Below the pieces are notes generated by a model. It was not told the DNA's origin and did not search any database. It worked only from the letters and a program-made list of their open reading frames with translations. Below are positions 1-39,142 of a stretch of 42,298 nt of DNA, piece after piece. The DNA lies in the NCBI GenBank assembly GCA_020439725.1, contig JAGQSE010000170.1, positions 1 through 42,298 of the forward strand, written 5' to 3'. This DNA comes from Acidobacteriota bacterium. GTDB lineage: Bacteria > Acidobacteriota > Thermoanaerobaculia > Multivoradales > JAHZIX01. Each line of letters starts with the position of its first letter. The first letter of the stretch is position 1. The position numbers were made by a program, and so were the translations under genes.

Positions 1-23
1 TTCAATTCCGCCCCTGGGCACCA
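1..23 (+). tRNA. 3' terminal fragment of a tRNA gene (window starts inside the gene)
   Basis: The sequence reads ttcaatt (T-loop TTCAATT), ccgcc (3' half of T-stem), cctgggc (3' half of acceptor stem), a (discriminator), then an encoded cca. The anticodon and 5' part lie outside the window, so the isotype cannot be called. Confidence 0.6.
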
Positions 24-177
24 TCTAAGTCTCCCAGAATCAGCTAGTTAGGGTCGTCGCTGGGAACTCTCCCGAAGGCGTCGTTCGGCTGGCGCAACCA
101 ATGCGCAACCAGCCGAGGGGGCGGATGTGCGTCCGGGCTCGCAGTGCAGGCGCCGAAGGCGGTTGCTGCATGGCCGT

Positions 178-2808
178 CTAGTCCAAGAAGGGATCGGAGT
201 CGTCTCGAAGCTCGTCTGCGCTGTTGGTTCCGTCTCGCTCGTCGCGATTGTCTTCCGCCGCGGCCTGGCCTTCGTCGAGCCGCTGGGGCCCCAAGCGGAG
301 CTGACCAGGCTGGGATCGTGGGAGGGTAGGCGCCTCGGGCTCGACCAGGCCCCGTAGGCGGACCCTTTGCAGGTCGAGCATGAGCCGTGGGTAATCCACC
401 GCTACGTAGACGTACTGGTCGTCGGGCACGAAGAGCGTTTCGATGAGCTGCGCGGACAGCGCTGCAGTGGTGAGGATAGCCTCGCGATTCCCCAGCTGCT
501 GCAAGCGATTGACCATGCGTTCCCGCTTCTCGTCGAGGGTCAGGTAGATCGGGCGCCGGGTCTTCGTCATGGAGTGCTCCCAACTCTCGGCTTCGGCTTC
601 CGTCTCGCCGCGGGAGTAGTCGAGCTTCTCGGTCAGCGCTACGCCTTCTTGGTGCGAGGCAATCTGCTGAAGGGCCTCCGAGTACGACTGCGAAACTTGG
701 TCAAGTACAGAAAACGCTCGGGCAACCGAGTCCTGCCAGCTCTCGGTCTCGGTCGTAGTCTCTGTCGTGGTCCAGGTCCTGCCTACCTCACGGGAGTGAC
801 TGCGGGAGCGGCCGCGTCCGCGGGTCTCGGTATCTACGTGGCTTCCGCCCTGCTGAAGACTCTCTCCGAGACTGAAAGACGTTCCGGATTCTTGTCTTGT
901 TCCTTTGGAGATGGTCAGGCCCTGCTGCTCCGAGAGAGCGTGCGCAACGCCGCGTAGTAGCGAGGTGGCCTTGCTGAGGCTCTCTTCCTGAGAACTGCTG
1001 ATACTCCTCATGCTGGCGAGCGAGGAACTCGTGCCATTGGTAGTGCGAGGCTTATTGTCTGTGTAGTAGGAGATGCTTCCGTTGGCTCCATGGGTCAGCG
1101 TGTCGCTCTGCCCTTCGGACTCTCTAACGCTATGCCCCCGGGTGTTCGTTTCTCCGTGCTGCTCGCTGGCAGTCAGGCTCTGACCCTGACTTCGCTGGAC
1201 CGCAAAGACCGCGTTCTCGCCTCTAGTCAGACTGAGTCCGCGGCGGTGATCACGAACCTGTGCCCAATTTCTCCCAACTGCGACGCTCATCTGAAGAGAC
1301 TCGTTGTAGGCCTCAGTAACACCCTCCGACTCAGATCTGCCTATTGCCGTTGCAAGCCCCCTCGCCAAGGAACCTCCGACGGCTTTCGTGACGGTCAAGC
1401 CGATGTTTGTGCCGAAGGTGCGTCCAATACCGATGGTATGGGTTTGTCCCAGCGAGATGGTGCGGGACCGCGACCAGCAGTAGGAAGTACCTTCCGTGAC
1501 CTGAAAGGAGAAGCTCAGGCTTCGAGAATGGCTCTTCGAGTAGGTTTCCGAGCGAGAGGTCTCATGGTGGCTGACTTCGGGTGCGGTGATCGCGTACAAC
1601 TCCTTCGCCATGGTCTCCGCGTCGGCGCGATCCAGCCGGAAGACGACCTTGATCTGCGAGTTCGCCTTGACGGTTGCAAGCAGCGCTTGCCCTTGAGGAG
1701 TCTCAAAGGGCGGCTGAGACTGCGATTGGTGGGCATTCACCAAGCTGAGGCCGTACTTGCGCAAGTCCGTCATGCTCTGAGCCAGAGCGAGATCTGCGAA
1801 GTGATGGAACTCGTCAAGGTACAGGTAGTAGCGGTTCTTCCACTCGTCCTGCTGCCTGCGGTAGGCGACTCGCTGAAGCTTGGTCGTGATGAGACGGCCA
1901 AGGAACGGTACTCCGGTGAGGTTCTCTCCGATTGGGAGATGACAGATCAAGCTGATGTCGTCCCTCAGGAGTCTGCCGAAGTCAAGGGTGCTTTGATGGG
2001 TATCAAGGGCTCTGAGAGCGAGCGTGTCGTCGACCAGATACTGGAGCACGTTCCAGCTAGACTGGATCAATCGGCTCTGCTCGATCCGGCCTAGCCGGGC
2101 GAAGTAACTCCAATACTGGCGTCGAAATCGGAGTCGAGCATCAGATCCAAGAGCATCCATCAGAGCAAGGCGCTGCTCGTCGCCTAGAAGCAGAAGGTCC
2201 GCCGCGAAGGAGAGGTTCAGCGGGTACGTACCTTGACATTGCGGAGGCAGAGGCGGTCTACGCGCCGGGGCAAGCCGATTGAGCTCCGCAGTCATCATGA
2301 AAACGCCGCGCAGAATGTTCCGCAGAATCCTCTGATCTTCGAGGTTACGCCCGAGGAGTCGCTCGATCGCCTTCAAGAGATCATCAACGAGGTTCTCGCT
2401 GGTCTCATGGTCAGTGGGTGCCAGGGGGTTGTACTTGACGGGGTTCTCGGCGTCGGTGAGGTCGAGAAACAGGAAGCGCTTGAGAATGTCCTCCGGATCG
2501 ATTCCTGACTGCGCCATGCGCTCTGTACCAGTCGCGACGAAGTCACGGACGGCGGCATACAGGTCCCCCATCGGGTCGACCAGACAGAGAGGGTGGCCCT
2601 TGGCAATATCCTGGAAGAGTAGCGCTTGAAGGAATCGGCTCTTACCGGAGCCGGAGACGCCTACGACGTAGGTGTGCACACTCCGCTGGTCTGGGCTGAG
2701 GAGGACAAGACCTCCGTCTTCGGCGAGGGTGCCTCCGGCAATGGAGTGGTCGATATCGCTCCGCTTCTTCCTGAGGAACACCAGGTCCTTCGGCAGGTGG
2801 TCTGGCAC
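178..2808 (-). CDS. FtsK/HerA/TraD-superfamily P-loop ATPase, type IV coupling protein-like, carrying a long low-complexity insertion
   Basis: 876-aa ORF. Walker A is VVGVSGSGKS (nt 2638-2661) and is followed by LCLVDPMGDLY. Walker B-like YYLYLDEFHHF is followed by LRKYGLSLVNAHQSQSQ, as in TraG-D_C/TraD-type domains. The GTG start lies 2 nt after the upstream stop, with AGGAAAG upstream. Confidence 0.8.
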   Translation of the reverse strand: MPDHLPKDLVFLRKKRSDIDHSIAGGTLAEDGGLVLLSPDQRSVHTYVVGVSGSGKSRFLQALLFQDIAKGHPLCLVDPMGDLYAAVRDFVATGTERMAQSGIDPEDILKRFLFLDLTDAENPVKYNPLAPTDHETSENLVDDLLKAIERLLGRNLEDQRILRNILRGVFMMTAELNRLAPARRPPLPPQCQGTYPLNLSFAADLLLLGDEQRLALMDALGSDARLRFRRQYWSYFARLGRIEQSRLIQSSWNVLQYLVDDTLALRALDTHQSTLDFGRLLRDDISLICHLPIGENLTGVPFLGRLITTKLQRVAYRRQQDEWKNRYYLYLDEFHHFADLALAQSMTDLRKYGLSLVNAHQSQSQPPFETPQGQALLATVKANSQIKVVFRLDRADAETMAKELYAITAPEVSHHETSRSETYSKSHSRSLSFSFQVTEGTSYCWSRSRTISLGQTHTIGIGRTFGTNIGLTVTKAVGGSLARGLATAIGRSESEGVTEAYNESLQMSVAVGRNWAQVRDHRRGLSLTRGENAVFAVQRSQGQSLTASEQHGETNTRGHSVRESEGQSDTLTHGANGSISYYTDNKPRTTNGTSSSLASMRSISSSQEESLSKATSLLRGVAHALSEQQGLTISKGTRQESGTSFSLGESLQQGGSHVDTETRGRGRSRSHSREVGRTWTTTETTTETESWQDSVARAFSVLDQVSQSYSEALQQIASHQEGVALTEKLDYSRGETEAEAESWEHSMTKTRRPIYLTLDEKRERMVNRLQQLGNREAILTTAALSAQLIETLFVPDDQYVYVAVDYPRLMLDLQRVRLRGLVEPEAPTLPRSQPGQLRLGPQRLDEGQAAAEDNRDERDGTNSADELRDDSDPFLD

Positions 2809-2810
2809 TT

Positions 2811-3170
2811 CTATCTTTCCTGGGTCCGCCCCGGCTCGTCTCCGAGCCTCTCGTTGAGGTCTTGTCTCTGGTCGATGGTCCTCTCCAAGGTGCGTTGGTG
2901 CTGCGCAAGAGCATTGCTCTGCTGCTTCATTGCAGCTCTTCCTGAGGCGACCTCCTCTTGGTGACCCCCTAGGTCTGCTAAGAAGGCCTCGGATGCGTCT
3001 CTCATTCGATCTTCGTTGTCGGTCCGTGCCCTCTGAAAGTGCTCGATTGCGAGGTCGTTTTGGGGACGACGAGGTGCCCTTCTGGAGATGGCCCCCGGCG
3101 TGCTTTTCTGAAATGCCTTTGAGAGCCCATCAAAGCGCTCGTCGAATTCGGCGTCCTCTAGGTCAGTCAT
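2811..3170 (-). CDS. hypothetical charged helical protein (119 aa)
   Basis: The ORF has a GAGGAG Shine-Dalgarno 5 nt upstream of its ATG. Its stop is 2 nt from the downstream ATPase start. No motif recognised. Confidence 0.6.
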   Translation of the reverse strand: MTDLEDAEFDERFDGLSKAFQKSTPGAISRRAPRRPQNDLAIEHFQRARTDNEDRMRDASEAFLADLGGHQEEVASGRAAMKQQSNALAQHQRTLERTIDQRQDLNERLGDEPGRTQER

Positions 3171-3196
3171 CAGTTCTCCTCTGCGACCTCGGTGCT

Positions 3197-3652
3197 CTAT
3201 TCGTCAGGCGCTGTTCTAGGGCGAAAGTGCAGTACGTTCGTCTTGCCCGGCCGGTCTGGAGTGGCAGTATCGAGGGTTCGAGCAGTGGCTATGCGAGCCT
3301 TGTCGGTGATCTCAGCTGTCTCCGAGCTCTCTCGGGGGCCGAGGATCTCGTAGGTGTTGGGGTCGTAGCGGATGGACTTGAGCCACTGCTGGTGGGCATA
3401 CCCAGGTGCGCCGGGAATGTGAGCGGTGGTGGAGTACTGGTCGGCTAGTCTGAATAGATAGAGCAAGTATGATCTAGGGGTGGAGTCTTCTCTGCACGAC
3501 TCGTACAAGCTGGAGTGCCATGGCGAGGGAGAGTTCGCATAGAACTTTAGCCGACGGACTGCCGGATCGGAATCATCGTCATAGTTGATCTGCTCGCCGA
3601 AGCTGCGGTGGATAGTTTCTGACAGAGGATTGAGAATTTGAAAGCAAATCAT
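3197..3652 (-). CDS. hypothetical protein (151 aa)
   Basis: The start overlaps the upstream stop as ATGA (3649-3652), indicating translational coupling. No motif recognised. Confidence 0.55.
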   Translation of the reverse strand: MICFQILNPLSETIHRSFGEQINYDDDSDPAVRRLKFYANSPSPWHSSLYESCREDSTPRSYLLYLFRLADQYSTTAHIPGAPGYAHQQWLKSIRYDPNTYEILGPRESSETAEITDKARIATARTLDTATPDRPGKTNVLHFRPRTAPDE

Positions 3653-5250
3653 TTATGCTCTTCCTTTCTCTTTCTGTCAAGAGAGTTGGTGAAGTGAGCG
3701 GGCTTTTGGTCCCAGAGCGCGATCCAAGAAGGTAGATCGGTCCTTGCTAGGGAGTGCTGCAAAAGAAGCTCTTCAAGCTCCTTCCTGTTTGGCAGGACTC
3801 CCGAGCGATACCGCTGGAACTGTGCCTGCTGGAAAGTGCGGTGGGGCTTGAGCCAAGCTTCTAGGAGATCGCGCGCTCTGTCGCCGGTTGCACGAAGGAT
3901 TGGTGTCGGCGAGAGCTGCTGGTGAGGAAGGTCCAACGTTCGCAGCGTGGTGAGGACAGTGGTCAGCGGCTCCTCTCCTAGGAGATAGGCGTTCAGGATG
4001 CCCACTAGCTCCCGGCCAGCGGTATGAAGATAGCGCTCCTCAAATTCATCGTCGATCAGTAGCTCATCAACAACCATGAGGAGGAACGGGTCAGACGGAC
4101 TGGGTCGTTCCTTTCGTTCGACCTGATAGGCTAGAGTCCGACGAGCTTCCAAGAGCAGGAACCCGACATCCCGATCGAGATACATTCCTCCTTCGGACTT
4201 CCGAAGCCTCTTGGACTCCTCGTCACGTAGTGCTTCCGCTCGTTGCCGAATCTCCGCGCGAAACCTCTTGAGCCCTTTTTCCTTGGCAGCTTGGTCTGTC
4301 TTTAGCGCCGAGAGCTTCGCTTCTGCATGCTGGGCGCGCTCGCGCGCTCCTCGGGCCTCGTTCTCGAGCCTCTCCGCGCTCTCGGCATGAGCTGCTTCTC
4401 GTTGCCGAAGGTTTGCCAGCTCCTCATCTGAGAGTCTGCGATGCTGTTCGCTGGCGGCAAGCTCTTCGCGGATCATGCTGACGAGCTGTCGCTGGTCCTC
4501 GGCTTCCTCTTCCGCCTCCTTCATCGTGCGCCGAGCCTTCTTCAATAGATCCTTGAGAGATTCCTCGTTGAGGCCCTTCTGGATCTGCCTCAGGAGCCTT
4601 TTTTCCTTGGCCAGGCTGATGAACATCCGGTAGGACTCTTCGCCACCTGACGTGTTTGGTGCGAAACCGCGCTGAGCTGCGAGTTCCACGATAAGGGCCT
4701 GTTGCGGATGAACTCCACGGCGAAACAGGGTGAAGGCCGTTCGGTATTTGTCGTCCCTCTCTACGATCTCGTTTTCCAGGAGTCGGTACCTGTGGAAGAG
4801 CTTCAGGAAGATCCATGCGAAGGCTTCGAATGAGCGAAATATGTCAGCTTCCTTGAAGCTCCCGTCATTTTGCGCGCTCTCGTCAGCTTCTTGAGCGGCT
4901 GCAGTCCGAAAGAGCGCCTCCTGGGGGTGGCGACCATTGCGCAGCAGCTCGAATTGGTGGACCATCACTGGCTCGAGGGACTTTAGATCCCGAGTGAGCT
5001 GACGGGTATGTTCCTCCGCCTCGCGGACGCGAGCGATGCGCTCCTTGAGGATAGTCCGGAGCTCCGAATCTCGTTCAGTGCGGAGTGTATGAACCAGCTG
5101 TCTTCTCGTTTCAAAAAGCCTCGCGGTCCGCTTCTTGAGCTCTGACGGCTGGATACCGAAGGGTTCGTGGGGTACAAGATCCAGATCTTGGCGCCGCGTG
5201 AGCGCGTTTGTCAACGAGAGCTCTGTTGGCTTCTTACTCTTGTCGCTCAC
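3649..5250 (-). CDS. hypothetical coiled-coil protein (533 aa)
   Basis: The GTG start overlaps the upstream stop (GTGA), with GGGAGAGAGGA upstream. There is a long E/R/K/A/L-rich heptad-like stretch (res about 230-345). An internal duplicated 21-aa motif is present: FELLRNGRHPQEALFRTAAAQ and FTLFRRGVHPQQALIVELAAQ. Confidence 0.7.
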   Translation of the reverse strand: MSDKSKKPTELSLTNALTRRQDLDLVPHEPFGIQPSELKKRTARLFETRRQLVHTLRTERDSELRTILKERIARVREAEEHTRQLTRDLKSLEPVMVHQFELLRNGRHPQEALFRTAAAQEADESAQNDGSFKEADIFRSFEAFAWIFLKLFHRYRLLENEIVERDDKYRTAFTLFRRGVHPQQALIVELAAQRGFAPNTSGGEESYRMFISLAKEKRLLRQIQKGLNEESLKDLLKKARRTMKEAEEEAEDQRQLVSMIREELAASEQHRRLSDEELANLRQREAAHAESAERLENEARGARERAQHAEAKLSALKTDQAAKEKGLKRFRAEIRQRAEALRDEESKRLRKSEGGMYLDRDVGFLLLEARRTLAYQVERKERPSPSDPFLLMVVDELLIDDEFEERYLHTAGRELVGILNAYLLGEEPLTTVLTTLRTLDLPHQQLSPTPILRATGDRARDLLEAWLKPHRTFQQAQFQRYRSGVLPNRKELEELLLQHSLARTDLPSWIALWDQKPAHFTNSLDRKRKEEHK

Positions 5251-7154
5251 TGGTCCTCTCTCCCTTTCGACTCGAGGTGATTTAGGTCCAGTCGGCCTGA
5301 CTTTAGGTCGATTCGAGCTTTCAAATGGGCAGGAATTGAACTTTCGGCCGCATGGACAGCTCGCTGTCGCTGGAGGCGGGCAAACTCAAGTTTCCTTCGG
5401 AGCGCCGTAGTTTCTGCTTTGCGCCTAGGGTGCTTCCTCGCCATGCCATCGACATGCACTTCGGCGTCGTCGAGCAGGCCTTGCTCCAGCAGAATTTCTG
5501 CATGCTCTATTTCGTGGGCGAAGTCCCTCGCCCTTTTGCGTCTCCAGCTCGCATAGGAGCTCTCTGACCTCTGAAGAGCCGTCGCAAGCGATAGGGCCAC
5601 AGCAAGTAGGGTGCCAGCGAGTGGAAGAACTGCTGGCAAGAGGAGGCTGTCGCTAGCTCGTCCGGCTTCGTTCTCGACGTGGGCGGACACACGGAGGAGC
5701 CACTTATCCGAGGTCACTACCTTTCCGTCTTCGGGCAGTGAAGCACTGGTCTCTTGGACTGGCTCGAAGTTCCCGGTTAGAAATTTTGTCTCAATGAGTC
5801 CTTGTGTGGTTGATGAGATCTGGATAGGTGTGGAGGTGAACCAGCGTATCCGGGGATGGTGGAGAATTCTTACAGTCGGTACTGAAGGGGGGTGATACTC
5901 AGACGTTCCGTTGATCCCGGTGAAGTGGAATATGCGCTGAAGATCGCCGTTTGTTACGCTCTCAGTAATGGCATACGAAGAGGGCCCCTGGTCGAGGATG
6001 CGGTATTCAAGGCCCTCGGCATTGGTCCAGAACTTGCTTATTGCGCCGTTACGCCCTTCGGTCTCGAATCTTCGTTTCCAGTAGATATATCTATGGCCGT
6101 TGCCGTTGAACCAGTCAGTCGGGACGATCGCTGAGTCGAGGTTCCGGGATCGAGTTCGCCAGCCAGCGATCTCGGGAACAATTGAGCGTAGCGTCGCGCT
6201 GGATACCTCGTGGGCCACGGTGCCCGGGGGTTTCCAGAGCCGCATTGATGGGAGAGCTGTGTATTCCCAGAGCGCTTTTAATTCTCGGCTCACGGACTCA
6301 TAGGCGAGAATATAAATTGGATCGTCCTCTACCTTCGAGATAACTTCTCTGCGATCGAGTTTGCGGCTTGGGTCTCGTGGGATGCGATAGATCGTAGCCC
6401 TAAGAGTGTCGGAGAGCTGGCACTCCCATGGTCCACCTTTCGTGCAGGGACTCTCCCACTGCGGCAGGTAGGCGTCCTGGCCGATGAGCCAGCCACTACC
6501 GAACTGAGCTTGAATCGGCTTGATCCCCTGTTCCTGGAGACGTTGATCTGCTTGCTCAATAGTCCAGCTCCAGTCGAGCCCCAGATCCCCGCGAAGATTG
6601 TTGAGGTCGTGGAACTCTTCGACGATCTTAAGACTCGGGAAGTCACTGCGGACAATTTGAAGATCGGCGTAGGTTACAGCCCGCGGGTCGGGCTTGGGGT
6701 TTTCTTCGAGATTCACTAGCTCTAAGGCACCAAATCTTCGGCTCCAGGTGAAGCCGGACTCCATGTTCATAAAGTAGAATTGGTAGAGACATGTTCGGTA
6801 CGGGTCTCTTCCTTCTGGGCTGCGCCAGGCGAGTACGTGCCCTGCAGCGCGAAGCCAGGAGGTCTGTTCAGAATCATCGATGCTCGCTATCTTCTCGAGC
6901 GGCCAGTCTTCTGCCTGTTCCGTCAGTTCCTCGCCAGGGAAGCCGCAAAGGAATTCGATCTCTGTCGAGGTTAGGATTGCGTGTTTCACGGCGCTAGCCG
7001 GTGCACTAGTAATGAAGAGGAGCGCGAGCAGAACACTCAGTGCGGAAGCGTGGAGACGCAGCCTCGCCAGGCCGCCGGATGTCTCTGGAGACGGCATCCT
7101 CGGAGGTGGCTCCATGCATGGCCTGGCTGCTGTGGTGCTGGCGAGAGAGTCCAT
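5247..7154 (-). CDS. secreted, C-terminally membrane-anchored hypothetical protein (635 aa)
   Basis: Signal-peptide-like LARLRLHASALSVLLALLFITSAPASA. It is followed by a large domain with no recognisable motif. There is a single TM (LLLPAVLPLAGTLLAVALSLATAL) near the C-terminus and then a basic helical tail of about 110 aa. The exact start is uncertain (M1, M14 or M20). Confidence 0.7.
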   Translation of the reverse strand: MDSLASTTAARPCMEPPPRMPSPETSGGLARLRLHASALSVLLALLFITSAPASAVKHAILTSTEIEFLCGFPGEELTEQAEDWPLEKIASIDDSEQTSWLRAAGHVLAWRSPEGRDPYRTCLYQFYFMNMESGFTWSRRFGALELVNLEENPKPDPRAVTYADLQIVRSDFPSLKIVEEFHDLNNLRGDLGLDWSWTIEQADQRLQEQGIKPIQAQFGSGWLIGQDAYLPQWESPCTKGGPWECQLSDTLRATIYRIPRDPSRKLDRREVISKVEDDPIYILAYESVSRELKALWEYTALPSMRLWKPPGTVAHEVSSATLRSIVPEIAGWRTRSRNLDSAIVPTDWFNGNGHRYIYWKRRFETEGRNGAISKFWTNAEGLEYRILDQGPSSYAITESVTNGDLQRIFHFTGINGTSEYHPPSVPTVRILHHPRIRWFTSTPIQISSTTQGLIETKFLTGNFEPVQETSASLPEDGKVVTSDKWLLRVSAHVENEAGRASDSLLLPAVLPLAGTLLAVALSLATALQRSESSYASWRRKRARDFAHEIEHAEILLEQGLLDDAEVHVDGMARKHPRRKAETTALRRKLEFARLQRQRAVHAAESSIPAHLKARIDLKSGRLDLNHLESKGREDQ

Positions 7155-7170
7155 GGCTGTAGTCCAGGTC

Positions 7171-8115
7171 TTAGCTTAGCTGCGCCTTCTTTGCCAACGC
7201 CCGCCCCCGCCCCGCCACATTCGTCCAGATCGGATCGAAGACGGGGTTCTCTTCCTTCACCGCGTCGAGACTCGCCACTGCCGTCAACTCGTAGCCCGGC
7301 TTGTCCCGGAGGCTCCGTGTCAGGCTGCGGGCTCGCTGGCGCTCGGTGGTCACGAGGAGGATCCGGAAGTCTCGTACAGCGCCGTAGCGCTGCCAGCGGT
7401 ACCGGGTACTGTCGTGTGGATCGAGCGCCGAGGCGTAGTGGTGATAGGCGAGGAGCTTGGCGGCGATTTCCCGAGCGCTCTCAAAGCCGCGATCGGCCTC
7501 AAGGAAGTAGAGCCGCGCGAGGGGCTGATCGTGCTGCGACTTGGCGAGAGCGAAGACGAGGTCGGGGCGGATTCGAATAGGAGCCGCCTGGCTGGGGACG
7601 ACGAGATCCTCCTGGCTCACGAAGCGCTCGACGTGCTTCTTGCTCGCCGTCCCCGCAACCGCGTGCGTGTGGTAGAAGGCCATGTGCAGCGGGCCGAGGT
7701 TGAGCAGTTCGAGGTGGCTGTGACGCAGGGCTTCCATGACGCGCACCGCGCACTCACTGACCATCAACGAGTGCTGCACCTGCCGCCAGGTGCCCGATCC
7801 CCGAGGTTGGTAGAGGCGCCGCTGGGGGATGCTGCAATGCTCCCGGAGCGCGGGTAGGGCCTGAGCCGCCAAGAAGTAGATGCGCTCCCGGGTCTCCAGC
7901 AGGCGGTCACCGCTGAGGTAACCGTGGTTCCAGAGCCGCTGGAGCCGCTTGCGGACGTTGTGGAGAGACGAGAGCTTGCCGGTGTCCGGTTGGTAGTAGC
8001 CAACCCGTTGGAGCTGCCGCAAGGTGAGCACGCGGACCATCCACAGCCAGCGGAACAGCTCGACGTCCGTGGCGGTGAGCACCAGGCCCGGCCTTCTGCG
8101 GTCTTCTCCTGCCAT
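7171..8115 (-). CDS. replication-relaxation (Replic_Relax) family protein
   Basis: 314 aa. The N-terminal winged-HTH-like region is LTATDVELFRWLWMVRVLTLRQLQRV...RKRLQRLWNHGYL. The C-terminal block is IRIRPDLVFAL...LYFLEADRGFES...AAKLLAYHHY, typical of this family. The stop lies 16 nt before the next gene. Confidence 0.75.
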   Translation of the reverse strand: MAGEDRRRPGLVLTATDVELFRWLWMVRVLTLRQLQRVGYYQPDTGKLSSLHNVRKRLQRLWNHGYLSGDRLLETRERIYFLAAQALPALREHCSIPQRRLYQPRGSGTWRQVQHSLMVSECAVRVMEALRHSHLELLNLGPLHMAFYHTHAVAGTASKKHVERFVSQEDLVVPSQAAPIRIRPDLVFALAKSQHDQPLARLYFLEADRGFESAREIAAKLLAYHHYASALDPHDSTRYRWQRYGAVRDFRILLVTTERQRARSLTRSLRDKPGYELTAVASLDAVKEENPVFDPIWTNVAGRGRALAKKAQLS

Positions 8116-8163
8116 CCCCCAGACTTTCCCGGCAGCATCGGGTCCATGGCGCCTCGCAAAGCG

Positions 8164-8412
8164 CTACTCATGGCCCGGATCCGACGTCGACGTGCGCAGC
8201 CGCGTCTCCACCCAGTGCTGAAGATCCTCGACCCTATAGCGCACAGCCCTTGCAGAGATTTTTACATACTTAGGACCGCGCCCCTGATAGCGCCAGGCTT
8301 GGAGCGCGCGCCGCGTCAGATTGAGGTAGGTGGCGGCCTCAACCTCTGTCAGCAAAGGAGCTGGAAGGTTGAGAGTGGATGCGATCGCCGGCATGAGCGT
8401 GACCTCCTGCAT
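8164..8412 (-). CDS. excisionase/AlpA-type helix-turn-helix DNA-binding protein
   Basis: 82 aa. The sequence LLTEVEAATYLNLTRRALQAWRYQGRGPKYVKISARAVRYRVEDLQHWV matches the MerR-superfamily HTH_17/Xis pattern. Confidence 0.7.
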   Translation of the reverse strand: MQEVTLMPAIASTLNLPAPLLTEVEAATYLNLTRRALQAWRYQGRGPKYVKISARAVRYRVEDLQHWVETRLRTSTSDPGHE

Positions 8413-8510
8413 CTAGCTGGTCGACAGTGCCGGAGAGGCCTGATGCCGGGCCGCTCCGGGGCGTTGCGAGCACTGTCTAAACCCTAGGCGCACCGCGGGA
8501 TGCTGACAAT

Positions 8511-8568
8511 TTACCCTTCGACACTACCCGCCTCGAAGGTAGGGTCAACGGGTAAGGAATGCGGGTAC
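8511..8568. promoter_or_regulatory. cluster of TACCC / GGGTA half-sites upstream of the Xis-like gene (candidate operator)
   Basis: The forward copies are TTACCC (8511-8516) and CTACCC (8524-8529). The inverted copies are CGGGTAA (8549-8555) and CGGGTAC (8562-8568). CCTTCGA/TCGAAGG (8515-8521 / 8533-8539) forms a 7-bp inverted repeat. Confidence 0.3.
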
Positions 8569-8814
8569 TCAGAGCGCTTGTAAGTGGTTGAAGGAAAGAC
8601 ACTTATTGAGTTCAAGTTTTTTCTGAGGGTGGTTCTGAGCCCGCACCAGAACAGCTGCTCGGTTGAACTCAACCGACAGATCGGCTGTCTGGTCTCGTTC
8701 CAAGCCTTCGAATTGGCCGCTTCGAGTGCGGCTGGTGGCTGGCGGGGAGGTGGAGGAACCGAGAGGAAAGGGAGAGCCTGCCGCAGGCCGACTCCCCATT
8801 CGATGTCAGCGGCT

Positions 8815-9462
8815 TCACGCCGCCCCAAACTGGCGCAGGCGCTTCTCCGCCACGGCGCAGTAGCCGGCGTCAAGCTCGACGCCGACGAAGCGGCGGCCCT
8901 GCTGGAGAGCTGCCGCTCCCGTCGAGCCGGAACCCATGAACGGGTCGAGGACCAGGTCGCCCGGGTCGGAAAAGGCGGCAATCAGCGGCTCGAGTGCAGA
9001 GACGGGCTTCTGCGTCGGGTGCAGCCGGTTGCCGGTGTAGCTCCACGGCAGCACGTCGTTGAGCAGCACCGTGGGTCGCCGCGGATGACGCTTCGCCAGC
9101 AGGTAGGCGCACTCGTGGGTAGCGCGCACGAGCCTACGCGAGGAGGCGTAGCTCTTCGCCCAGACGAAGTGCCCGACTGGAAAGAGCCCGCAGCGGCGCC
9201 ATGCCGCGAGGAACTGGTCGGCGCGGTTCCAACCGTAGAACGAGATGCAGTAGCCGTCCGGCTTGAGCACGCGGGCGATCTGCCGGAATGCCGGCTCGAT
9301 CCAGTCCGCGGCGTTGTCGTTGGCGATGCGCCGTCCGGTTCGGTCGCGGTAGTTGACGACATAGGGCGGGTCTGTGATCACCAGATCCACGCGCTCGGGC
9401 CGAGCGCCCCGCAAGACGTCGATGCAGTCGCCGTTGATGAGCCTGAAGAGTGAAGAGGTCAT
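8815..9462 (-). CDS. orphan N6-adenine/N4-cytosine DNA methyltransferase (N6_N4_Mtase, beta class)
   Basis: Catalytic DPPY is in LVITDPPYVV. HPTQKP and the AdoMet motif LDPFMGSGSTG lie near the C-terminus. The start is placed at MTSSLFRLINGDC (ATG 9462), because the longer ORF extension overlaps the DUF736-like gene and a terminator. No restriction endonuclease gene is adjacent. Confidence 0.9.
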   Translation of the reverse strand: MTSSLFRLINGDCIDVLRGARPERVDLVITDPPYVVNYRDRTGRRIANDNAADWIEPAFRQIARVLKPDGYCISFYGWNRADQFLAAWRRCGLFPVGHFVWAKSYASSRRLVRATHECAYLLAKRHPRRPTVLLNDVLPWSYTGNRLHPTQKPVSALEPLIAAFSDPGDLVLDPFMGSGSTGAAALQQGRRFVGVELDAGYCAVAEKRLRQFGAA

Positions 9463-9473
9463 GGGAAGTGAGT

Positions 9474-9509
9474 AAAAAAAGAGCCCGGCACCGCTCCTGT
9501 GGTACCGGG
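9474..9509 (-). terminator. Rho-independent terminator after the DUF736-like gene
   Basis: On the minus strand, CCCGGUACC-ACAGGAGC-GGUGCCGGG forms a 9-bp stem (one G-U pair) with an 8-nt loop. It is followed by CUC and U7 (plus-strand A7 at 9474-9480). The stem starts 9 nt after the stop codon at 9518-9520. Confidence 0.7.
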
Positions 9510-9517
9510 CAAGGGCT

Positions 9518-9721
9518 CTACCGTCGGGGAGCCTGTGTCCGCTTGGCGCCAGGCCGTTGGCGCGGCTCAGCCAGGATGAAGCGGCCATCCGGAGGTAGCA
9601 GGTCCAGAGCGACGGAAAGGCCTTGGCCGCTCTTGGTGTTCCAGGCGGCACCGATCTTGGTCCAATAGCCGTCCTTCACGTGGAAGGCATGGAAGACCGG
9701 AGAGTTCTCATGAGGAGTCAT
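9518..9721 (-). CDS. small DUF736-like protein
   Basis: 67 aa. The sequence KIGAAWNTKSGQGLSVALDLLPP resembles the conserved (F/I)GAAWKKTS...YLSVKLDDPSF core of DUF736 proteins found on ICEs and plasmids. It is shorter than typical family members. Confidence 0.5.
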   Translation of the reverse strand: MTPHENSPVFHAFHVKDGYWTKIGAAWNTKSGQGLSVALDLLPPDGRFILAEPRQRPGAKRTQAPRR

Positions 9722-10049
9722 GGGAAAAGGGGATAAGAGGATAGGAAAAATGCCGACCGAGAGAATCCCTCTCGCTCAGCGCTTCCCTTCCAGCAGACAG
9801 AGGGTCTCCCGCGGGTCAAGGAGGAGTCGCCGGAAAGCCAGCGGAATAGCCCCGGCGACAGAGCCGCCGGATTCCGGCTCCGGATGTCTCCTCCCGCTGA
9901 TGCTCCAGGAAACCGGCCTGCTCTTCCGGGGATCTGCGCTGCGGCGGTGAAGCTCCTTGAGGCGCGGGAGATGTCTGCTCTCCTGGGAAGAAGCGAGCGT
10001 CCCCCTCTCTGGGGTTGTTCCCCGGCAGTTCGAGCCCGCACCGCGAGCC

Positions 10050-10126
10050 CTGAGCACAACACTGCATTGTGCTCAGTTCGATCCCGACTCGTCGGGAGAA
10101 CAACTGTGCACAATGGCCGGTTGTGC
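10050..10126. repeat. two copies of a GCACAA-N7-TTGTGC palindrome plus an intervening hairpin
   Basis: CTGAGCACAA-cactgca-TTGTGCTCAG (10050-10076) is a 10-bp perfect stem. TCCCGAC-tc-GTCGGGA lies at 10082-10097. GCACAA-tggccgg-TTGTGC lies at 10108-10126. Confidence 0.5.
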
Positions 10127-10248
10127 CAGGAGAACTGCTTCCTTCTGCTTGAAATCTTTCGATGTGCTCGCGCTTTTATCCCGACGATCGAGAACGTCAG
10201 GCGCGGGAAGTGGGGCTGCGCGCAGAGGGGATCTGGCCGAGGTGCCGC

Positions 10249-10410
10249 TTAGTGGGTGGACAGCAGATCTCTCAGGAGGATGAGGTGTTCCATCGCTAGC
10301 TGCCGGATCTCGGCATCAGTCAGGCTGAGCTCTTTGCCGTGCTCCAGCACCATCAGTGCTACCTGAAGATTCTCTCGAAGGTCAGCAATTTCTGGGGGTG
10401 AAAATTCCAT
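10249..10410 (-). CDS. small hypothetical helical protein (53 aa; below the ORF-track cutoff)
   Basis: The ORF runs ATG 10410 to TAA 10249 and translates to MEFSPPEIADLRENLQVALMVLEHGKELSLTDAEIRQLAMEHLILLRDLLSTH. Its composition looks protein-like, but there is no obvious SD. Confidence 0.3.
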   Translation of the reverse strand: MEFSPPEIADLRENLQVALMVLEHGKELSLTDAEIRQLAMEHLILLRDLLSTH

Positions 10411-10417
10411 ACAAGGT

Positions 10418-10544
10418 GGGGCGATCGACCGATCCAGCTAACCCACCCAATCGAACCAGGGTCCAGACAGGATGGTGGAAGCGGTAATCGCCCCACGAAG
10501 CAATCCTGTCGGGAAGGTTTGAGTGAGATAGATGGTGGGTTAGC
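10418..10544. ncRNA. candidate structured RNA or DNA element (nested plus pseudoknot-compatible inverted repeats)
   Basis: Pair B is GCTAACCCACC 10437-10447 with GGTGGGTTAGC 10534-10544 (11 bp). Pair C is GACAGGAT 10466-10473 with ATCCTGTC 10503-10510 (8 bp, nested in B). Pair A is GGGGCGAT 10418-10425 with ATCGCCCC 10487-10494 (8 bp, crossing B and C). It sits in a divergent intergenic region, and the strand is undetermined. Confidence 0.3.
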
Positions 10545-10901
10545 AATAATGATGCTAGCGGAGCAGGAGTCCGCAGTAAAGGCGATTTTTTATTGCGCGA
10601 ATGGGCATGGTTGCCTTGTTGAGGGTTTCGAGTGCGTGCTTCGGAGTGTGGTAGTCTTAGAGAGTATGTGTGTTCATCCATGAGTCTTGGGGGTGGGAGC
10701 CTTCGATGATGTCTTGCAACCGCTCCAGGGGCCCGAGCCGCCATTTGGCTTGGTGGTTTTCGACCGCTGAGAACGGGGCGGTAGGTTCCATGCCGAGCTA
10801 GTCCAGGTACGGCCCAGGAACCCTAGGGGCTGGAGCGGAGTCCAACTCAACGATTGGGCACCGTGGTCCGTAGACCCAGAAAGAGCCGGGAGGTGCGATT
10901 G

Positions 10902-13900
10902 ATGGTCGGACGAGAGGGAAGGGCTGCATCGGCCCGCTGGATCGAATACCTCGGAGCGTGCGCAATGGTCTTGATGGCTGTGTCGGATGCTCCAGCCGCC
11001 GCAAGCCCTCCACAAAGTTCTCCTTCGGTTGCTACTCAAGGTCAACCGGCGACCGAAGGGGGAACGCCGATCTTCTCGGATGGCTTCGAGAGCGGAGACT
11101 ACTTCGCTTGGTCCCAAGCAGTCTTCGATACGGCCGACGAGACTCCGCCCAGTCTCGCCATCACGGCACCGGCGCCGCCGATCCTTTTCAACGAGCACCT
11201 CGTTACGATCGAGTTGGTCTATTCCGACGATGACTCTGGGATCGCTCAGAACAGCCTGGCGGTGGGGTTGGATGGCGTGCCGATCACCAGCGGTTGCGCG
11301 GTTCAAGCCGGTGCGGCGAGCTGCGAGAGCTTCTACCTCGATGAGGGAGCTCACGGGATCACGGCGTCGATCTGGGATCAAGCCGGCCACCGGACAGATG
11401 CCAGCCGCTTTCTGACGATCGTCCTGGATACGACTCCGCCAGAGATCCTCCTCACCTCACCTCCAGAAGAGAATGCGCTGGTCGCGACTCCTACGCTTCT
11501 GGTGACCGGAACGGTGTCGGACGGGGATCAAGTCGCCGAGGTCCTGGTCAGCGCAGAGCCGCTTCCCCTCACCGAGGACGCCCCCTCGGCGCAGCGGGTC
11601 ACGAGGCCGGTCGAGGGGCGCATCGAAGGGGATGCCTTCTCCGCCGAAGTATCGCTGGGAGAAGGTCTGAACCTGGTTGTCGTGCAGGCTCTCGACCGGG
11701 CCGGAAACGAAGCCGTCGTCTCACGCTTCGCAGTACGGGACTCCACGGTTCCCACCCTCGAGATCGAGTCTCCGGAGGGTGGTGCAGTGGTCAACGCGGC
11801 TCAGGTTCTCGTTTCGGGCCAGGCGTTCGACGATGCGCATGAAGTCACGGTCTCCGTCAACGGCATGCCGGTGCCTCTGGACCTGCGGTCCTTCTCCACG
11901 ACGGTACCTTTGACCGAGGGGGCGAACGCCGTCCTCGTCGAAGCAATCGACGAAGCGGGAAATACGGCCTCCGAGACCGTTCAAGTCGAGCGCGTGACCG
12001 TACCCACTCTTACGATCACGAGCCCGGCCTATGGCGCTCGGATCGAGGCGGCCGCGGTGGAGGTGTTGGGGACTGTTTCCGAGCCCATCGCGAGTGTGCG
12101 CGTGAACGGAGTCGCAGCGACGGTAGGTGCAGGGACCTTCCAGGCGACGATTCCGGTCAACCCTGGCGGAACCTTGATCGCCGCGGTCGCGACGAACCCC
12201 TCGGGAGCCCAGGCGACGGTCAAGACCAAGGTCTACCGAGATCTGAGCGCACCTCGGGTCGCGGTCACGTCGCCGGTTGACGGCAGCGTCGTCCATCAGG
12301 GAACGATTCCCGTGGTGGGCTTGGTCAACGACATCGTGCCTGGCACCGTCGACGCCGTCGATGCCAATGTCTGGGTCAACGGTCAGCCGGCGCAGGTCGC
12401 GAACCGATCATTCCTGCTCCCCAGCCTGGCGCTCTCCCCCGGCAGCAACGACATCACGGTTTCCGCCGAGGACGTTGCCGGGAATCTCGGTAGCGAAACG
12501 GTCACGGTCCACTACGAGCCGATCGTTGGCGCCCGCATCGAGCCGGTCTCCGGGAGCCTTCAGAGCGCGGTCATCGAGGCGCCACTGGCGGCTCCACTGG
12601 TGGTTCGCGTCTTGGATGACGGCGACCAGCCCGCTCAAGGCGTCGTCGTGGTGTTTCGCGTGGTGCAGGGCAACGGCAGCGTTGGGGGCGGAACGCGAAC
12701 GGTTCCTGTCCTGACCGATGCGAACGGCGAAGCGGCAACCTCCTTCCGGCTGGGAACACGCGCGGGAGTCGGCAACCAGCGGGTCCTCGCCGAGGCTGCC
12801 GGCTACTCGGGCCGCGTCGAGTTCCTGGCGACGGCGCTCCCGGGGCCTCCGGCCTACATCCACGTGGATGCCGGTGGACAGCAGCGAGGCGCCGCTCTTC
12901 AGCTGCTGCCGGATCCCATGGCCGTGGTCGTTACGGATGCCGGCTTCAACCGTCTTCCCGGTGTCGCGGTCGAATACCAGGTGGCACAGGGCCAAGCGGT
13001 GTTTGAGGAGACGGTGGCGCAGACGCTGTCCAGCACCACGGACCCGGACGGTAGAGCCGTTGCGCGGCTCCGCTTGGGAGCTGAGGAGGGGCCAGCAAAC
13101 ACTGTGGTCGAAGTGGGGCTGCCAGGCGATTCGACCGTTCGTTCGGCTACCTTCGTCGCTTCGACCTTCGCGGCCGGCGACCCCGCTTTGACCCGGATCT
13201 CGGGCCTGGTCCTCGACAACGCGAGTCAGCCGATTCCTGGAGTCACTCTCAGCCTGGCGGGGACAAGCTTGACCACTCAGTCGGATGCGGACGGTCTCTT
13301 CAGCCTGGCGGGGGTTCCGGTGGGAACATTCCATCTCGAGGCAGATGGCAGCACGGCAACACGGGCGGGCATCTGGCCGCACCTGGAGTTCGAGATCACG
13401 ACCATCGCGGGCCGGGACAATTCGTTGGGCATGCCGATCTACCTTCTTCCCCTCGACATCGAGCGAGGCCTAGCGGTGACCGCGACCGAAGGTGGCACGC
13501 TGACGCTTCCCGAGCTTCCTGGATTCTCTCTGACCGTCGAGCCGGGCTCGGTGACCTTCCCGGGCGGTACGCAAGAAGGAACGGTCAGCGCCACCCTCGT
13601 GCATGGCGACAAGGTGCCGGACGTGCCCAACTTCGGTCAGCAACCGACCTTCCTGCTGACGATACAGCCCGCAGGCGCGGTCTTTGATCCGCCGGCAAGG
13701 CTGTCGATGCCGAACGTGGATGCGCTGTCTCCGGGAACGGTGACGGAGCTCTACTCCTTCGACCACGACCTGGGTTCGTTCGTGAGCATCGGTCCTGGGA
13801 CGGTGAGCGACGACGGAACCATGGTGGTGTCGGATCCCGGGGTGGGAATCGTGAAGGCCGGCTGGCACTGCGGCGGCAACCCGACGCCGACCGGTACGCC

Positions 13901-15197: not shown

Positions 15198-15203
15198 GGT
15201 AGC

Positions 15204-15740
15204 TTGATGAAGAACATTCTGTTGATTCTGTTGTTCAGTTGCTTGGGGTGCGGCATGGTTTCAACCCTGCCCGCTAGCGGTGGATCTGCCGGGGTTGGCG
15301 ATGCTCGAGCTTTCGGTCGCTGGAGTACCACTGAGGTGATGGGCGCTCCCGTTACGAACCCCACTCAGATCGAGGTGACCGACACTGGGGAGAGATCGGT
15401 CCAGCTGGATGTCACGGCCAGTGGTGAGACTTCGGTGATTTCGGGAGTTTATATCTCTATTGGATCGCTTCAGGTTCTGTCTGTCCAGAATGACCAGGAC
15501 AGTTGGAACATTCTTTTTCTAGAATTTAGTGCCGATGGTCAGGTGCTGACTGTGCGAGCCATGGACGTAGATGTAGTTCGCACTGCGGTGGAAGAGGGGC
15601 AGCTAGTCGGGGAAGTGATTCTTCCTGATACTAGCGAGATGCTGATCTCTGTGGGGGCCGCGTCGCCGGAATTGGTTGATTTTATAGCTGCGACACCGAC
15701 GGCTGTTGGCACTGTCGTCGGAATCCTCAGCAAGGAATAG
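15204..15740 (+). CDS. small lipoprotein (178 aa), candidate cognate or immunity partner of the upstream C-terminal domain
   Basis: The N-terminus is MMKNILLILLFSCLGCGMVS, a signal peptide with lipobox-like Cys. The gene starts 7 nt after the giant ORF's stop. The immunity role is inference only. Confidence 0.65.
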   Translation: MMKNILLILLFSCLGCGMVSTLPASGGSAGVGDARAFGRWSTTEVMGAPVTNPTQIEVTDTGERSVQLDVTASGETSVISGVYISIGSLQVLSVQNDQDSWNILFLEFSADGQVLTVRAMDVDVVRTAVEEGQLVGEVILPDTSEMLISVGAASPELVDFIAATPTAVGTVVGILSKE

Positions 15741-17407: not shown

Positions 17408-17504
17408 TGACAGGGTTGAGAGATAGGAGTGGGCGGAAGCGGGGCCTGGGACTCTTGACTCGGAGCCTACTGGAAGCGCTGGTGGTGTGGAACGGGAGAG
17501 AGAA

Positions 17505-36258: not shown

Positions 36259-36337
36259 CGTGAGGGCTCCATAGGAAGGTCAGTGCTTCCTTTGTGCCTA
36301 CGAGGCGCAAAGGAGCAGATTCTTGGCTCAAGGAAAC

Positions 36338-36467
36338 ACGAGAGACGAGGGAATCGGTTCGAGGTGGTACTATGCGGGCTGCCGCACTAAGAGCTAGTCG
36401 GTAAGGGGGCCGCTCCGGCGTCACGGTGGCGTGGGAAGTGCCCCGAGCTCTTGGTGAGGTGTCCAGA
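36338..36467 (-). pseudogene. decayed 3' remnant of an ECF sigma-factor gene (paralog of 39143-39733)
   Basis: 36259-36333 aligns to 39057-39130 (the kinase 5' flank) at roughly three quarters identity by eye. AGAGACG (36341-36347) corresponds to 39146-39152 at the sigma stop. 36420-36444 (gtcacggtggcgtgggaagtgcccc) corresponds to 39213-39237 (gtcacggtggtacgggagatgccca), the region-4 HTH coding sequence, with 19 of the best 24 positions identical. There is no intact ORF. Confidence 0.4.
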
Positions 36468-39056: not shown

Positions 39057-39142
39057 GTTCAGGGCTCCGCTGGAAGGTCATGCTGCTTTGTACCTACGAG
39101 GCGCAAAGGGGCAGGCTCCTGGCGCAAGCCAACGAGGAGATC

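Follow-up and report, generated by a model that had tools for sequence, protein, structure and literature searches.

The window analysed here is an entire 42,298-bp contig of an Acidobacteria metagenome-assembled genome, and our subject is a string of seven genes at one end of it, a module that includes a relaxase-like Replic_Relax protein and an ATPase of the type IV coupling protein (T4CP) kind. All seven open reading frames (ORFs) lie on the minus strand, between positions 8412 and 178. In reading order they encode a small DNA-binding protein of 82 amino acids (aa) with a helix-turn-helix (HTH) domain of the MerR/excisionase-type HTH_17 family (8164-8412; Pfam); the 314-aa Replic_Relax protein (7171-8115; Pfam); a 635-aa type-I membrane protein (5247-7154; hydropathy); a 533-aa all-helical protein with NCBI locus tag KDD11_05970 (3649-5250; AlphaFold2 [AF2] model and homologues); a 151-aa soluble protein of a small family (3197-3652; homologues); a 119-aa acidic, highly hydrophilic orphan of pI 5.2 (2811-3170), which has coding-like GC content at third codon positions (GC3); and an 876-aa coupling-protein-like ATPase of the TrwB/VirD4/TraD type without a transmembrane (TM) segment (178-2808; Pfam, AF2 and Foldseek). 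A sequence-only reading had already described this string, and the coordinates, lengths, gene order, overlaps and small gaps that it gave proved exact in a check of ORFs and junctions.

The genes are closely packed. Gaps of 48 nt (HTH_17/Replic_Relax) and 16 nt (Replic_Relax/635) are followed by two 4-nt overlaps, GTGA between the 635- and 533-aa genes and ATGA between the 533- and 151-aa genes, then by gaps of 26 nt (151/119) and 2 nt (119/ATPase). Purine-rich, Shine-Dalgarno-like stretches precede the starts of the 533-aa, 151-aa, 119-aa and ATPase genes; none was seen ahead of the 635-aa gene. This spacing suggests co-transcription of all seven genes; promoter and terminator scans of the locus performed no better than chance. 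Where the 635- and 151-aa genes truly begin is uncertain, since alignment with homologues sets in only at aa ~48 and aa ~10, respectively. An AT-richer block had been claimed at about 3200-7150, and composition agrees: GC is 56-57.5% at 3001-7000 against 63-65% at 7001-10000, and GC3 is 0.62-0.66 in the four unrecognised genes (635, 533, 151 and 119 aa) against 0.84 in Replic_Relax and 0.72 in the ATPase gene. Since the identical gene string was assembled independently in two further metagenome assemblies (L001 and L002; L numbers denote related loci and P numbers individual homologous proteins), the cluster is not an assembly artefact. A scan of nt 1-11000 against Rfam gave no match.

The ATPase is a homologue of TrwB/VirD4-type coupling proteins that has no membrane domain. 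Two T4CP models of Pfam, TrwB_AAD_bind (5.3e-9, 35.9 bits; gathering cut-off 20.5) and TraG-D_C (2.2e-5, 24.8 bits; cut-off 22), match it within its first 430 residues, and a sequence search of the PDB returned only TrwB chains at E ≤ 0.001 (1.1e-6), with DotL next at 1.5e-3. All of its matches among 72,556 plasmids were annotated T4CP, TraD or TraG. An AF2 model built from 17 homologues (predicted local distance difference test [pLDDT] 81.9) has a RecA-like core with an all-helical insertion (residues 137-282) between strands 112-116 and 286-290, that is, between Walker A and Walker B; both motifs, GSGK(56) and DE(332-333), are invariant across the 17 homologues. When the model was submitted to Foldseek, TrwB (7.5e-9), which also heads the PDB sequence matches, DotL and Cagbeta came first, at TM-scores of 0.5-0.63 and identities of 12-18%. 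VirB4 and HerA rank below the T4CPs, by just 1-3 orders of magnitude in E-value, and HerA-DUF4297 and SIR2-HerA structures are also among the fold matches. FtsK_SpoIIIE reached 15.3 bits against a cut-off of 24 and over 26 residues only, and DUF87 reached 19.6 bits, under its cut-off of 23.2; by these measures the ATPase is neither of the FtsK/TraB nor of the HerA/TdtA type, and no NurA was found in the window or the relatives. Hydropathy revealed no TM or other hydrophobic segment in the window ATPase or in any of 13 homologues.

Three segments can be distinguished in the ATPase. Residues 1-434 (nt 1507-2808) form the nucleotide-binding domain with its all-alpha insertion. Residues 435-725 (nt 634-1506) are a low-complexity insert of ~290 aa, rich in S, T, G, R, E and Q, which is common to relatives of ~850 aa and missing from those of ~600 aa. 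Residues 726-876 (nt 181-633) form a conserved C-terminal domain, without a family match, and an acidic tail ending in DPFLD. Every full-length homologue examined terminates in acidic residues and then P[FW]x[DF]-COOH (DPFLD, PWSF, PFED, PFAF), the exceptions being P0018 (from L018) and P0019, both apparently truncated; the L018 ATPase seems to break off inside the Ser-rich region. The tail looks like a docking peptide and is reminiscent of the TraM-binding tail of F TraD; its motif does not strictly co-vary with the type of partner protein encoded nearby.

Close homologues of the ATPase are few (44-57% identity) and, in the species-level genome collection, occur in Acidobacteriota only (Thermoanaerobaculia, Candidatus Multivoradales and unclassified). 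We fetched their surroundings, called genes by a GC3-based rule that reproduces the window genes, and clustered the products; metagenomes were scanned with patterns from the ATPase alignment, that of the 533-aa family being too divergent to derive any. Each of the 14 non-redundant loci whose flanks are long enough combines the ATPase with a gene of the 533 family and with Replic_Relax (within 10 kb). Among the large host assemblies, CBDFLE010000006.1 (5.2 Mb) contains the module twice; others are OZ375331.1 (12 Mb) and DATHEF010000033.1. Linkage of the three is thus obligate, and the association with a relaxase-like gene that had been proposed for the cluster extends to each of these loci. Order, and even strand, of the ATPase pair vary. 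The window and L003 share the order Replic_Relax, 635, 533, 151, 119, ATPase, and L021 has Replic_Relax, a 533-like gene (675 aa), a 151-like gene, a 161-aa ORF and the ATPase. In L013, L014 and L015 the ATPase follows Replic_Relax directly and precedes a 635-like gene, a 533-like gene and, in L013 and L015 only, a 151-like gene. In L005, L007 and L008 a 533-like gene and the ATPase converge with a unit of opposite strand that runs from the methylase toward HTH and Replic_Relax. L009, L012 and L016 have HTH, membrane proteins, 533-like gene and ATPase, with Replic_Relax convergent downstream, and L017 has Replic_Relax and then HTH, membrane proteins, 533-like gene and ATPase on a single strand. 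The genes are therefore syntenic in other genomes and their association is no random juxtaposition, the 635 and 151 families recurring in the same relative order. The proposed five-gene unit holds as far as synteny goes but has to be redrawn: the conserved unit is a three-gene core of Replic_Relax, ATPase and 533 family with variable accessories, of which the 635 and 151 families are frequent; the 119-aa protein is without a significant homologue. Conservation within the string is uneven, and in L003 the 635-aa protein is 54% identical to that of the window while Replic_Relax is 80% identical.

The four partner proteins (635, 533, 151 and 119 aa) had been placed outside known mating-pore and defence families, and they indeed matched nothing in Pfam, NCBIfam, PADLOC or PHROGs, nor in the PDB. 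Ten more conserved neighbour genes in the relatives likewise had no match in Pfam, NCBIfam or PADLOC. Searches with Pfam, NCBIfam and PHROG models found no VirB4-family ATPase or channel component among the partners and relatives, and by this measure the module does not encode a mating pore. Hydropathy agrees with the topology first proposed for the 635-aa protein: an N-terminal signal-like segment (aa 30-48, then ASA/VK), a Trp-rich domain of ~450 aa predicted to be periplasmic, a single C-terminal TM segment (aa ~503-525; nt ~5580-5648), and a basic tail of ~110 residues (pI 10) on the cytoplasmic side. No TM segment was detected by the same means in the 533-aa, 151-aa or 119-aa proteins. 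The sole close homologue of the 635-aa protein is P0002 (54% identity); L014 and L018 encode distant homologues of the same topology, and proteins of L013 and L015 with 635-like topology are linked to the family weakly, via L014 and the fusion proteins described below.

The coiled coil ascribed to the 533-aa protein is borne out by its AF2 model (pLDDT 83.3, above 90 in the C-terminal domain), which is all-helical and includes a 75-residue coiled-coil helix (aa 276-350). A conserved C-terminal domain of ~170 aa follows (aa ~355-525; nt 3676-4188), with the family consensus ...YGFLMAEAWRvLRAE...RYFH..GR...N.YL.G..PL...EAWLvPHRR.Q...W..LWDE.P. Pfam found no domain in 22 members of the family, Foldseek of the model against the PDB and BFVD gave no match below E 0.39, and PDB profile searches with the family returned coiled-coil noise only. 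A word-indexed protein search found one relative of the 635-aa protein and none of the 533-aa protein, which marks the limit of its sensitivity; the two families were recovered by BLAST against the neighbours of ATPase homologues and by exhaustive phmmer, in which a concatenate of the 635-aa (aa 49-635) and 533-aa proteins was compared with 1.84 billion cluster representatives. That search yielded 23 proteins in all, one being P0002 and ~21 belonging to the 533 family.

Two members of this set connect the 635- and 533-aa proteins. P0034 (1225 aa) and P0043 (1128 aa) each contain a signal peptide, a large ectodomain, one TM segment and a full 533-like region in a single chain; their ectodomains are similar to the 635-like proteins encoded in L014 and L018 (1e-20 to 1e-28), which in turn match the 635-aa protein of the window at 1e-6 to 1e-8. 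By this chain of similarity P0034 and P0043 are Rosetta-stone fusions of the genes that overlap by GTGA in the window, and the fusion argues that the 635- and 533-aa proteins act as one unit. Across the relatives, the partner is brought to the membrane in three interchangeable ways: by 2-4 N-terminal TM helices of its own (forms of ~395-470 aa); by a separate 3-TM protein encoded directly upstream (L012); or by a 635-like type-I protein that precedes a TM-less partner or is fused to it (window, L003, P0034, P0043). L013-L015 and L018 combine N-terminal TM helices with a 635-like neighbor. L021 is the one exception, as its 675-aa partner has no TM segment and no adjacent membrane protein was found. 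The simplest reading is that the 533 family would serve as membrane adaptor to a coupling ATPase without a membrane domain of its own, through a contact that we infer.

The two small partners are less widespread. The 151-aa protein is 39% identical to a 154-aa protein of L013 (8e-22) and 33% identical to the N-terminus of a 278-aa protein of L021 (4e-14), and has a relative in L015 as well; in all three loci the gene comes immediately after that of the 533 family. For the 119-aa protein, none of the loci yielded a significant homologue. The 161-aa ORF that occupies the same place in L021, just before the ATPase, was considered as its counterpart and set aside, the similarity not being significant. 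In one clade, further conserved and unrecognised genes lie between HTH_17 and the 533-like gene (L016 5498-8759, L017 4485-8341, L009 5252-7851); they encode proteins of 385-404 aa (2-4 TM segments), 427-522 aa and 206-231 aa (2-3 TM segments), none with a family match, and could belong to the same machine as additional membrane components. In L018 a three-gene unit downstream of the ATPase (6613-15534) is tandemly duplicated; it consists of a 303-306-aa minus-strand gene, a 756/767-aa 635-like gene and a TM-anchored 533-like gene.

Replic_Relax is the second member of the core. Its match to PF13814 (1.1e-13, 52.1 bits; cut-off 25.3) covers profile positions 1-177 of 191, and an N-terminal DNA-binding region and a nuclease part are predicted. 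PF13814 corresponds to the MobC relaxase class of CONJscan (PMC5357655) and belongs to the PD-(D/E)XK families, its name covering plasmid replication as well as relaxation (PMC3424549). The protein is 46-80% identical across related loci, and in 10 sequences at 46-62% identity to that of the window the residues E121, D185 (in RPD), E206 and D208 (in LEADRG) and K220 are invariant; these acidic and Lys residues are presumably catalytic. Judged by its sequence, the window protein falls within the MOBC relaxase family.

The HTH_17 protein (Pfam 6.6e-10, above cut-off) is 56-85% identical in relatives. Its gene adjoins either Replic_Relax or the gene for the ATPase partner, depending on the locus, and in L014 and L018 the 533-like protein carries the domain as a C-terminal fusion, which ties the membrane scaffold to sequence-specific DNA binding. 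It had been called a Xis-type protein: the domain is as described, but the excisionase label is unproven, and because the protein travels with relaxase or partner and is fused to the latter in two loci, a DNA-recognition accessory fits it as well as an excisionase does.

Upstream of the module on the minus strand lies a conserved non-coding region (8413-8814), recognized by repeats kept across loci. Direct TACCCG and inverted CGGGTA sites occur at 8511-8570, ~12-13 bp apart and with the direct sites first; there are four TACCC/GGGTA sites in 80 bp, against 0.07 expected. L005, L007, L008, L013 and L017 have this layout immediately ahead of their Replic_Relax unit, and L014 and L016 keep it there with TATCCGG/CCGGATA as the site. 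A C-rich box, CCTCCACCTCCCCGCCAGCCACC, lies at 8734-8756 on the minus strand, and in nine loci such a box (CCTCCaCCTCCCCaCCAgCCACC) is located 150-250 nt further upstream of the repeat sites. Altogether, a conserved cis element directly precedes the relaxase unit in 8-9 loci, and it goes with Replic_Relax, not with the HTH gene. Such an arrangement would be expected of an origin of transfer (oriT), and we regard the region as a candidate oriT and operator.

The same features lend themselves to a different explanation, namely that the module serves replication or maintenance of the excised island, with Replic_Relax as initiator nuclease at an iteron-like TACCCG origin and the tethered ATPase segregating or resolving copies. 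The family is named for plasmid replication too (PMC3424549), the protein matches a PHROG for "replication initiation by nicking" (1.4e-8), the repeated sites predicted upstream of Replic_Relax are phased, and other islands carry, beside tRNA-Phe, genes faintly similar to island or plasmid replication proteins. Those similarities are, however, far below cut-off; the module has no helicase, primase or polymerase gene linked to it, ATPases of the T4CP type are not known as partition or replication factors, and membrane and periplasmic partners have no obvious replication role. We consider this explanation very improbable.

The setting of the module points to an integrated island. Window nt 1-23 (plus strand), TTCAATTCCGCCCCTGGGCACCA, can be aligned to the T-arm and the acceptor 3' end in the tRNA-Phe genes beside the related islands of L012 and L013, and correspond to the 3' end of tRNA-Phe(GAA) or to an attachment (att) repeat derived from it; as the first base of the contig already falls within the tRNA gene, ARAGORN reports no complete tRNA. 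On this alignment they mark the junction of island and chromosome. A tRNA 3' end also faces the element in L009, L012 and L013 (tRNA-Phe), L005 and L014 (tRNA-Ala) and L008 (tRNA-Arg), and tyrosine integrases are present in L007 and L016. In L007 (14004-18274) Replic_Relax is split by an IS21-family insertion (transposase and IstB); this island copy is decaying. Beside tRNA-Phe, in the usual place of an integrase, lies a conserved gene pair (L009 722-2866, L012 3612-5774, L013 16956-19067) that is absent from the window; it encodes a 317-aa protein with an N-terminal HTH_17 and a protein of 383-401 aa, has no recombinase domain, and is the pair with the faint, far sub-threshold similarity to replication proteins. 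The genes of the module are the best conserved between islands of differing cargo, a pattern that befits a function of the island backbone. A plasmid origin of the contig was considered and rejected: the contig has no terminal overlap, Replic_Relax had no plasmid match, and the best plasmid hit of the ATPase (Sulfitobacter) lay in an uninformative context.

The window also carries a second, canonical set of transfer genes. A VirD4-like T4CP of 419 aa, without a detectable TM segment, is encoded at 23436-24695 (plus strand), and a MobA/VirD2 relaxase and a MobC/NikA protein at 40628-41479 and 41454-41849 (both minus strand). VirD4-like genes recur in L013, L016 and L026, and MobA/MobC genes adjoin Replic_Relax in L026.

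We interpret the module as the DNA-processing and coupling module of a tRNA-integrated, most likely mobilizable Acidobacteriota island with a split coupling protein, a reading to which we give about an even chance. The proposed order of events is as follows: Replic_Relax, a MOBC-type PD-(D/E)XK relaxase, would bind and presumably nick the upstream repeat element with the help of HTH_17; the cut DNA would be passed to a hexameric coupling ATPase of the TrwB/VirD4 type; this ATPase, having lost its own membrane domain, would be held at the inner membrane by the 533-family protein, itself anchored in the window through the single-pass 635-aa protein, whose large domain would face the periplasm; the 151- and 119-aa proteins may be accessory or adaptor subunits; and passage through the outer layers would presumably depend on a type IV secretion system (T4SS) encoded elsewhere.

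The precedent is CloDF13. MOBC1 plasmids are rare mobilizable plasmids that encode their own T4CP, and in the MobB protein of CloDF13 a three-helix membrane domain of ~150 aa is essential (PMC7431656). Like CloDF13, the module combines a MOBC/Replic_Relax relaxase with a dedicated coupling ATPase on an element where no mating-pore genes were seen, and the short partners of the window family, with 2-4 TM segments in their first ~130 residues, recall the three-helix domain of MobB. Unlike in CloDF13, the membrane part is one or two separate proteins of a family without known relatives; the partner has a long coiled coil and a novel C-terminal domain of ~170 aa, to which some versions add a periplasmic domain of 300-700 aa; the relaxase has no similarity to plasmid relaxases that tblastn could detect; and the module resides on a chromosomal, tRNA-integrated Acidobacteriota island whereas CloDF13 is a small enterobacterial plasmid. 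By analogy, then, mobilisation of the CloDF13 kind, with a MOBC relaxase and its own coupling protein, the latter split into an ATPase and a novel anchor, seems to us roughly evenly balanced between true and false. The sequence-only reading had spoken of a minimal non-canonical transfer apparatus; an ordinary mobilisation module is at least as good a description, because MOBC elements such as CloDF13 carry their own coupling protein.

A separate membrane anchor also has parallels. TMD-less T4CPs (those without a transmembrane domain, TMD) that rely on a membrane partner are a recognised class, exemplified by TraJ/TraI of pIP501 and by TraG-J pairs (PMC7431656). In these, as in the module, an ATPase without an N-terminal membrane domain would be recruited by a membrane protein with a gene of its own; the partner family of the module is, however, unrelated to any described one, and those pairs belong to complete T4SS clusters, none of which was seen at the module. 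TrwB of R388, Cagbeta and DotL are the best sequence and fold matches of the ATPase and share the all-alpha insertion between Walker A and B, and a C-terminal extension is found in TraD and DotL as well; unlike TrwB, Cagbeta and DotL, the window ATPase has no TMD, is only 12-18% identical, and carries the Ser/Thr/Gly-rich insert of ~290 aa, a family-specific C-terminal domain and the P[FW]x[DF] tail.

Several observations weigh against mobilisation. The 42-kb window and the 10 kb to either side of each relative yielded neither VirB4 nor another mating-pore gene, so a helper T4SS has to be assumed. Replic_Relax found no match on any of the 72,556 plasmids by tblastn, and its role as a relaxase therefore rests on family membership only. 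No second att copy or tRNA 3' end that would define the borders of the island was found in the window or the fetched loci. Finally, the canonical genes described above (VirD4-like T4CP in the window, L013, L016 and L026; MobA/VirD2 and MobC/NikA in the window and L026) make a second relaxase/T4CP pair look redundant; one set may therefore serve some other purpose, and this keeps alive the notion of a self-contained exporter.

Such an exporter would work independently of a T4SS: the ATPase hexamer, the coiled-coil 533-aa protein and the periplasm-facing 635-aa protein would together span the envelope and push island or chromosomal DNA out, Replic_Relax acting as the nuclease that generates the ends. 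Precedents are TdtA/NurA "transjugation" of ICETh1 in Thermus and TraB of Streptomyces. Mating-pore genes are missing from the window and every flank; the module is always accompanied by membrane proteins of its own, among them some whose periplasmic domain is large, and L009, L016 and L017 encode additional conserved membrane proteins beside it; and if the co-resident VirD4, MobA and MobC genes are an ordinary mobilisation module, the problem of redundancy disappears. ICETh1 of Thermus thermophilus has the same overall make-up, being tRNA-integrated and encoding a TM-less, membrane-associated ATPase of the FtsK/HerA superfamily, nucleases, a PF01555 methylase and an integrase but no T4SS (PMC5365140); in the window, too, a PF01555 methylase adjoins the module and no T4SS was seen. 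The components nonetheless differ and show no sequence relationship. ICETh1 combines the HerA-like TdtA with a NurA-like protein, Tth111II and the methylase, whereas the module combines a T4CP-like ATPase with a PD-(D/E)XK Replic_Relax and membrane partners. The nearest kin of the ATPase are T4CPs, proteins that act together with a T4SS, and HerA/TdtA and FtsK/TraB are more distant; neither NurA nor an outer-membrane component nor a peptidoglycan hydrolase was found; and the minimal relatives in L005, L007 and L008 have only a partner with 2-3 TM segments, too little to span a diderm envelope. We thus regard a self-contained exporter as unlikely. Its fullest form, in which the hexamer would be docked by its acidic tail and the 533-aa scaffold onto a periplasm-spanning 635-aa protein and would, in a diderm phylum, move DNA cut by a MOBC nuclease without VirB4, pilus or secretin, strikes us as distinctly unlikely.

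The methylase just mentioned is an orphan N6/N4 DNA methyltransferase (PF01555; Pfam 2e-36) at 8815-9651 on the minus strand. L005, L007 and L008 have a counterpart of 63-69% identity at the corresponding place, and the gene is missing from L013-L017, L021 and L026, which keep the module. Alignment with homologues begins only at aa ~45-70, and the ORF as listed contains a strong terminator-like hairpin (9483-9510, minus strand); the ORF is probably over-extended at its 5' end, with the true start near 9470.

A methylase beside a nuclease and an ATPase of the FtsK/HerA superfamily is a combination that recurs in defence systems, and island-encoded defence or exclusion has to be weighed: the 635- and 533-aa proteins would form a membrane sensor that signals to the DNA-translocating ATPase and the Replic_Relax nuclease, the methylase marking self DNA. 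The ATPase matches mad8 of the MADS system (mad1-8) in PADLOC at 6.8e-14, the HTH protein faintly matches mad1, and a methylase is nearby as in MADS; HerA-DUF4297 and SIR2-HerA are among the fold matches of the ATPase. The accessory genes also evolve fast and have lower GC3, as the contrast between the 635-aa protein and Replic_Relax in L003 illustrates, and the 635-like/533-like pair is tandemly duplicated in L018. MADS itself can be rejected, as its rule makes mad6, mad7 and mad8 mandatory and mad8 alone of these was matched, mad6 and mad7 being absent from the window and the relatives. The support for defence that the mad8 match seemed to lend is not real: HHpred alignments with homologues in the PDB are the source of the MADS models, and the match thus reports the fold only. 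No partner matched any other defence model, many module-bearing loci have no methylase, and the module, which is better conserved than any other part of these islands of varying cargo and is found alongside integrases and tRNA junctions, has the pattern of backbone and not of exchangeable cargo. A defence function is, in our judgement, quite improbable.

Some cargo is shared between islands. A cassette at 24772-39733, found also in L005, L014, L018 and L021, encodes an extracytoplasmic function (ECF) sigma factor (PF07638), one or two Ser/Thr kinases with tetratricopeptide repeats, a HEAT-repeat protein and a giant surface protein of immunoglobulin-like/beta-sandwich domains (2512 aa here). 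Two more giant surface proteins are encoded at 10854-15197 and 17487-21401. The gene at 21422-22279 fuses a RadC-like JAB domain to the C-terminal DNA-binding domain of H-NS, an unusual combination; RadC is common in the leading regions of conjugative elements.

Acidobacteriota are among the most abundant phyla of soils and sediments and, to our knowledge, almost nothing is known of how genes move among them. The module marks a family of tRNA-integrated islands that carry ECF-sigma/kinase cassettes and giant surface proteins, and three of its protein families have no counterpart in the PDB or in any of the four searched family libraries, forming part of a rare, phylum-restricted island backbone. 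Its relaxase, coupling ATPase and oriT-like site are of an already known kind; the architectural twist is that the membrane anchor of the coupling ATPase has been handed to separate, previously undescribed proteins. If the module serves only mobilisation by a helper T4SS, it would broaden the range of coupling proteins and MOBC relaxases that is known and add three new families for annotation. Should it export DNA by itself, it would represent a new conjugation-like mechanism, a route alongside Streptomyces TraB and Thermus transjugation. With its conserved cis element and few parts, the module makes both ideas testable in a heterologous host.

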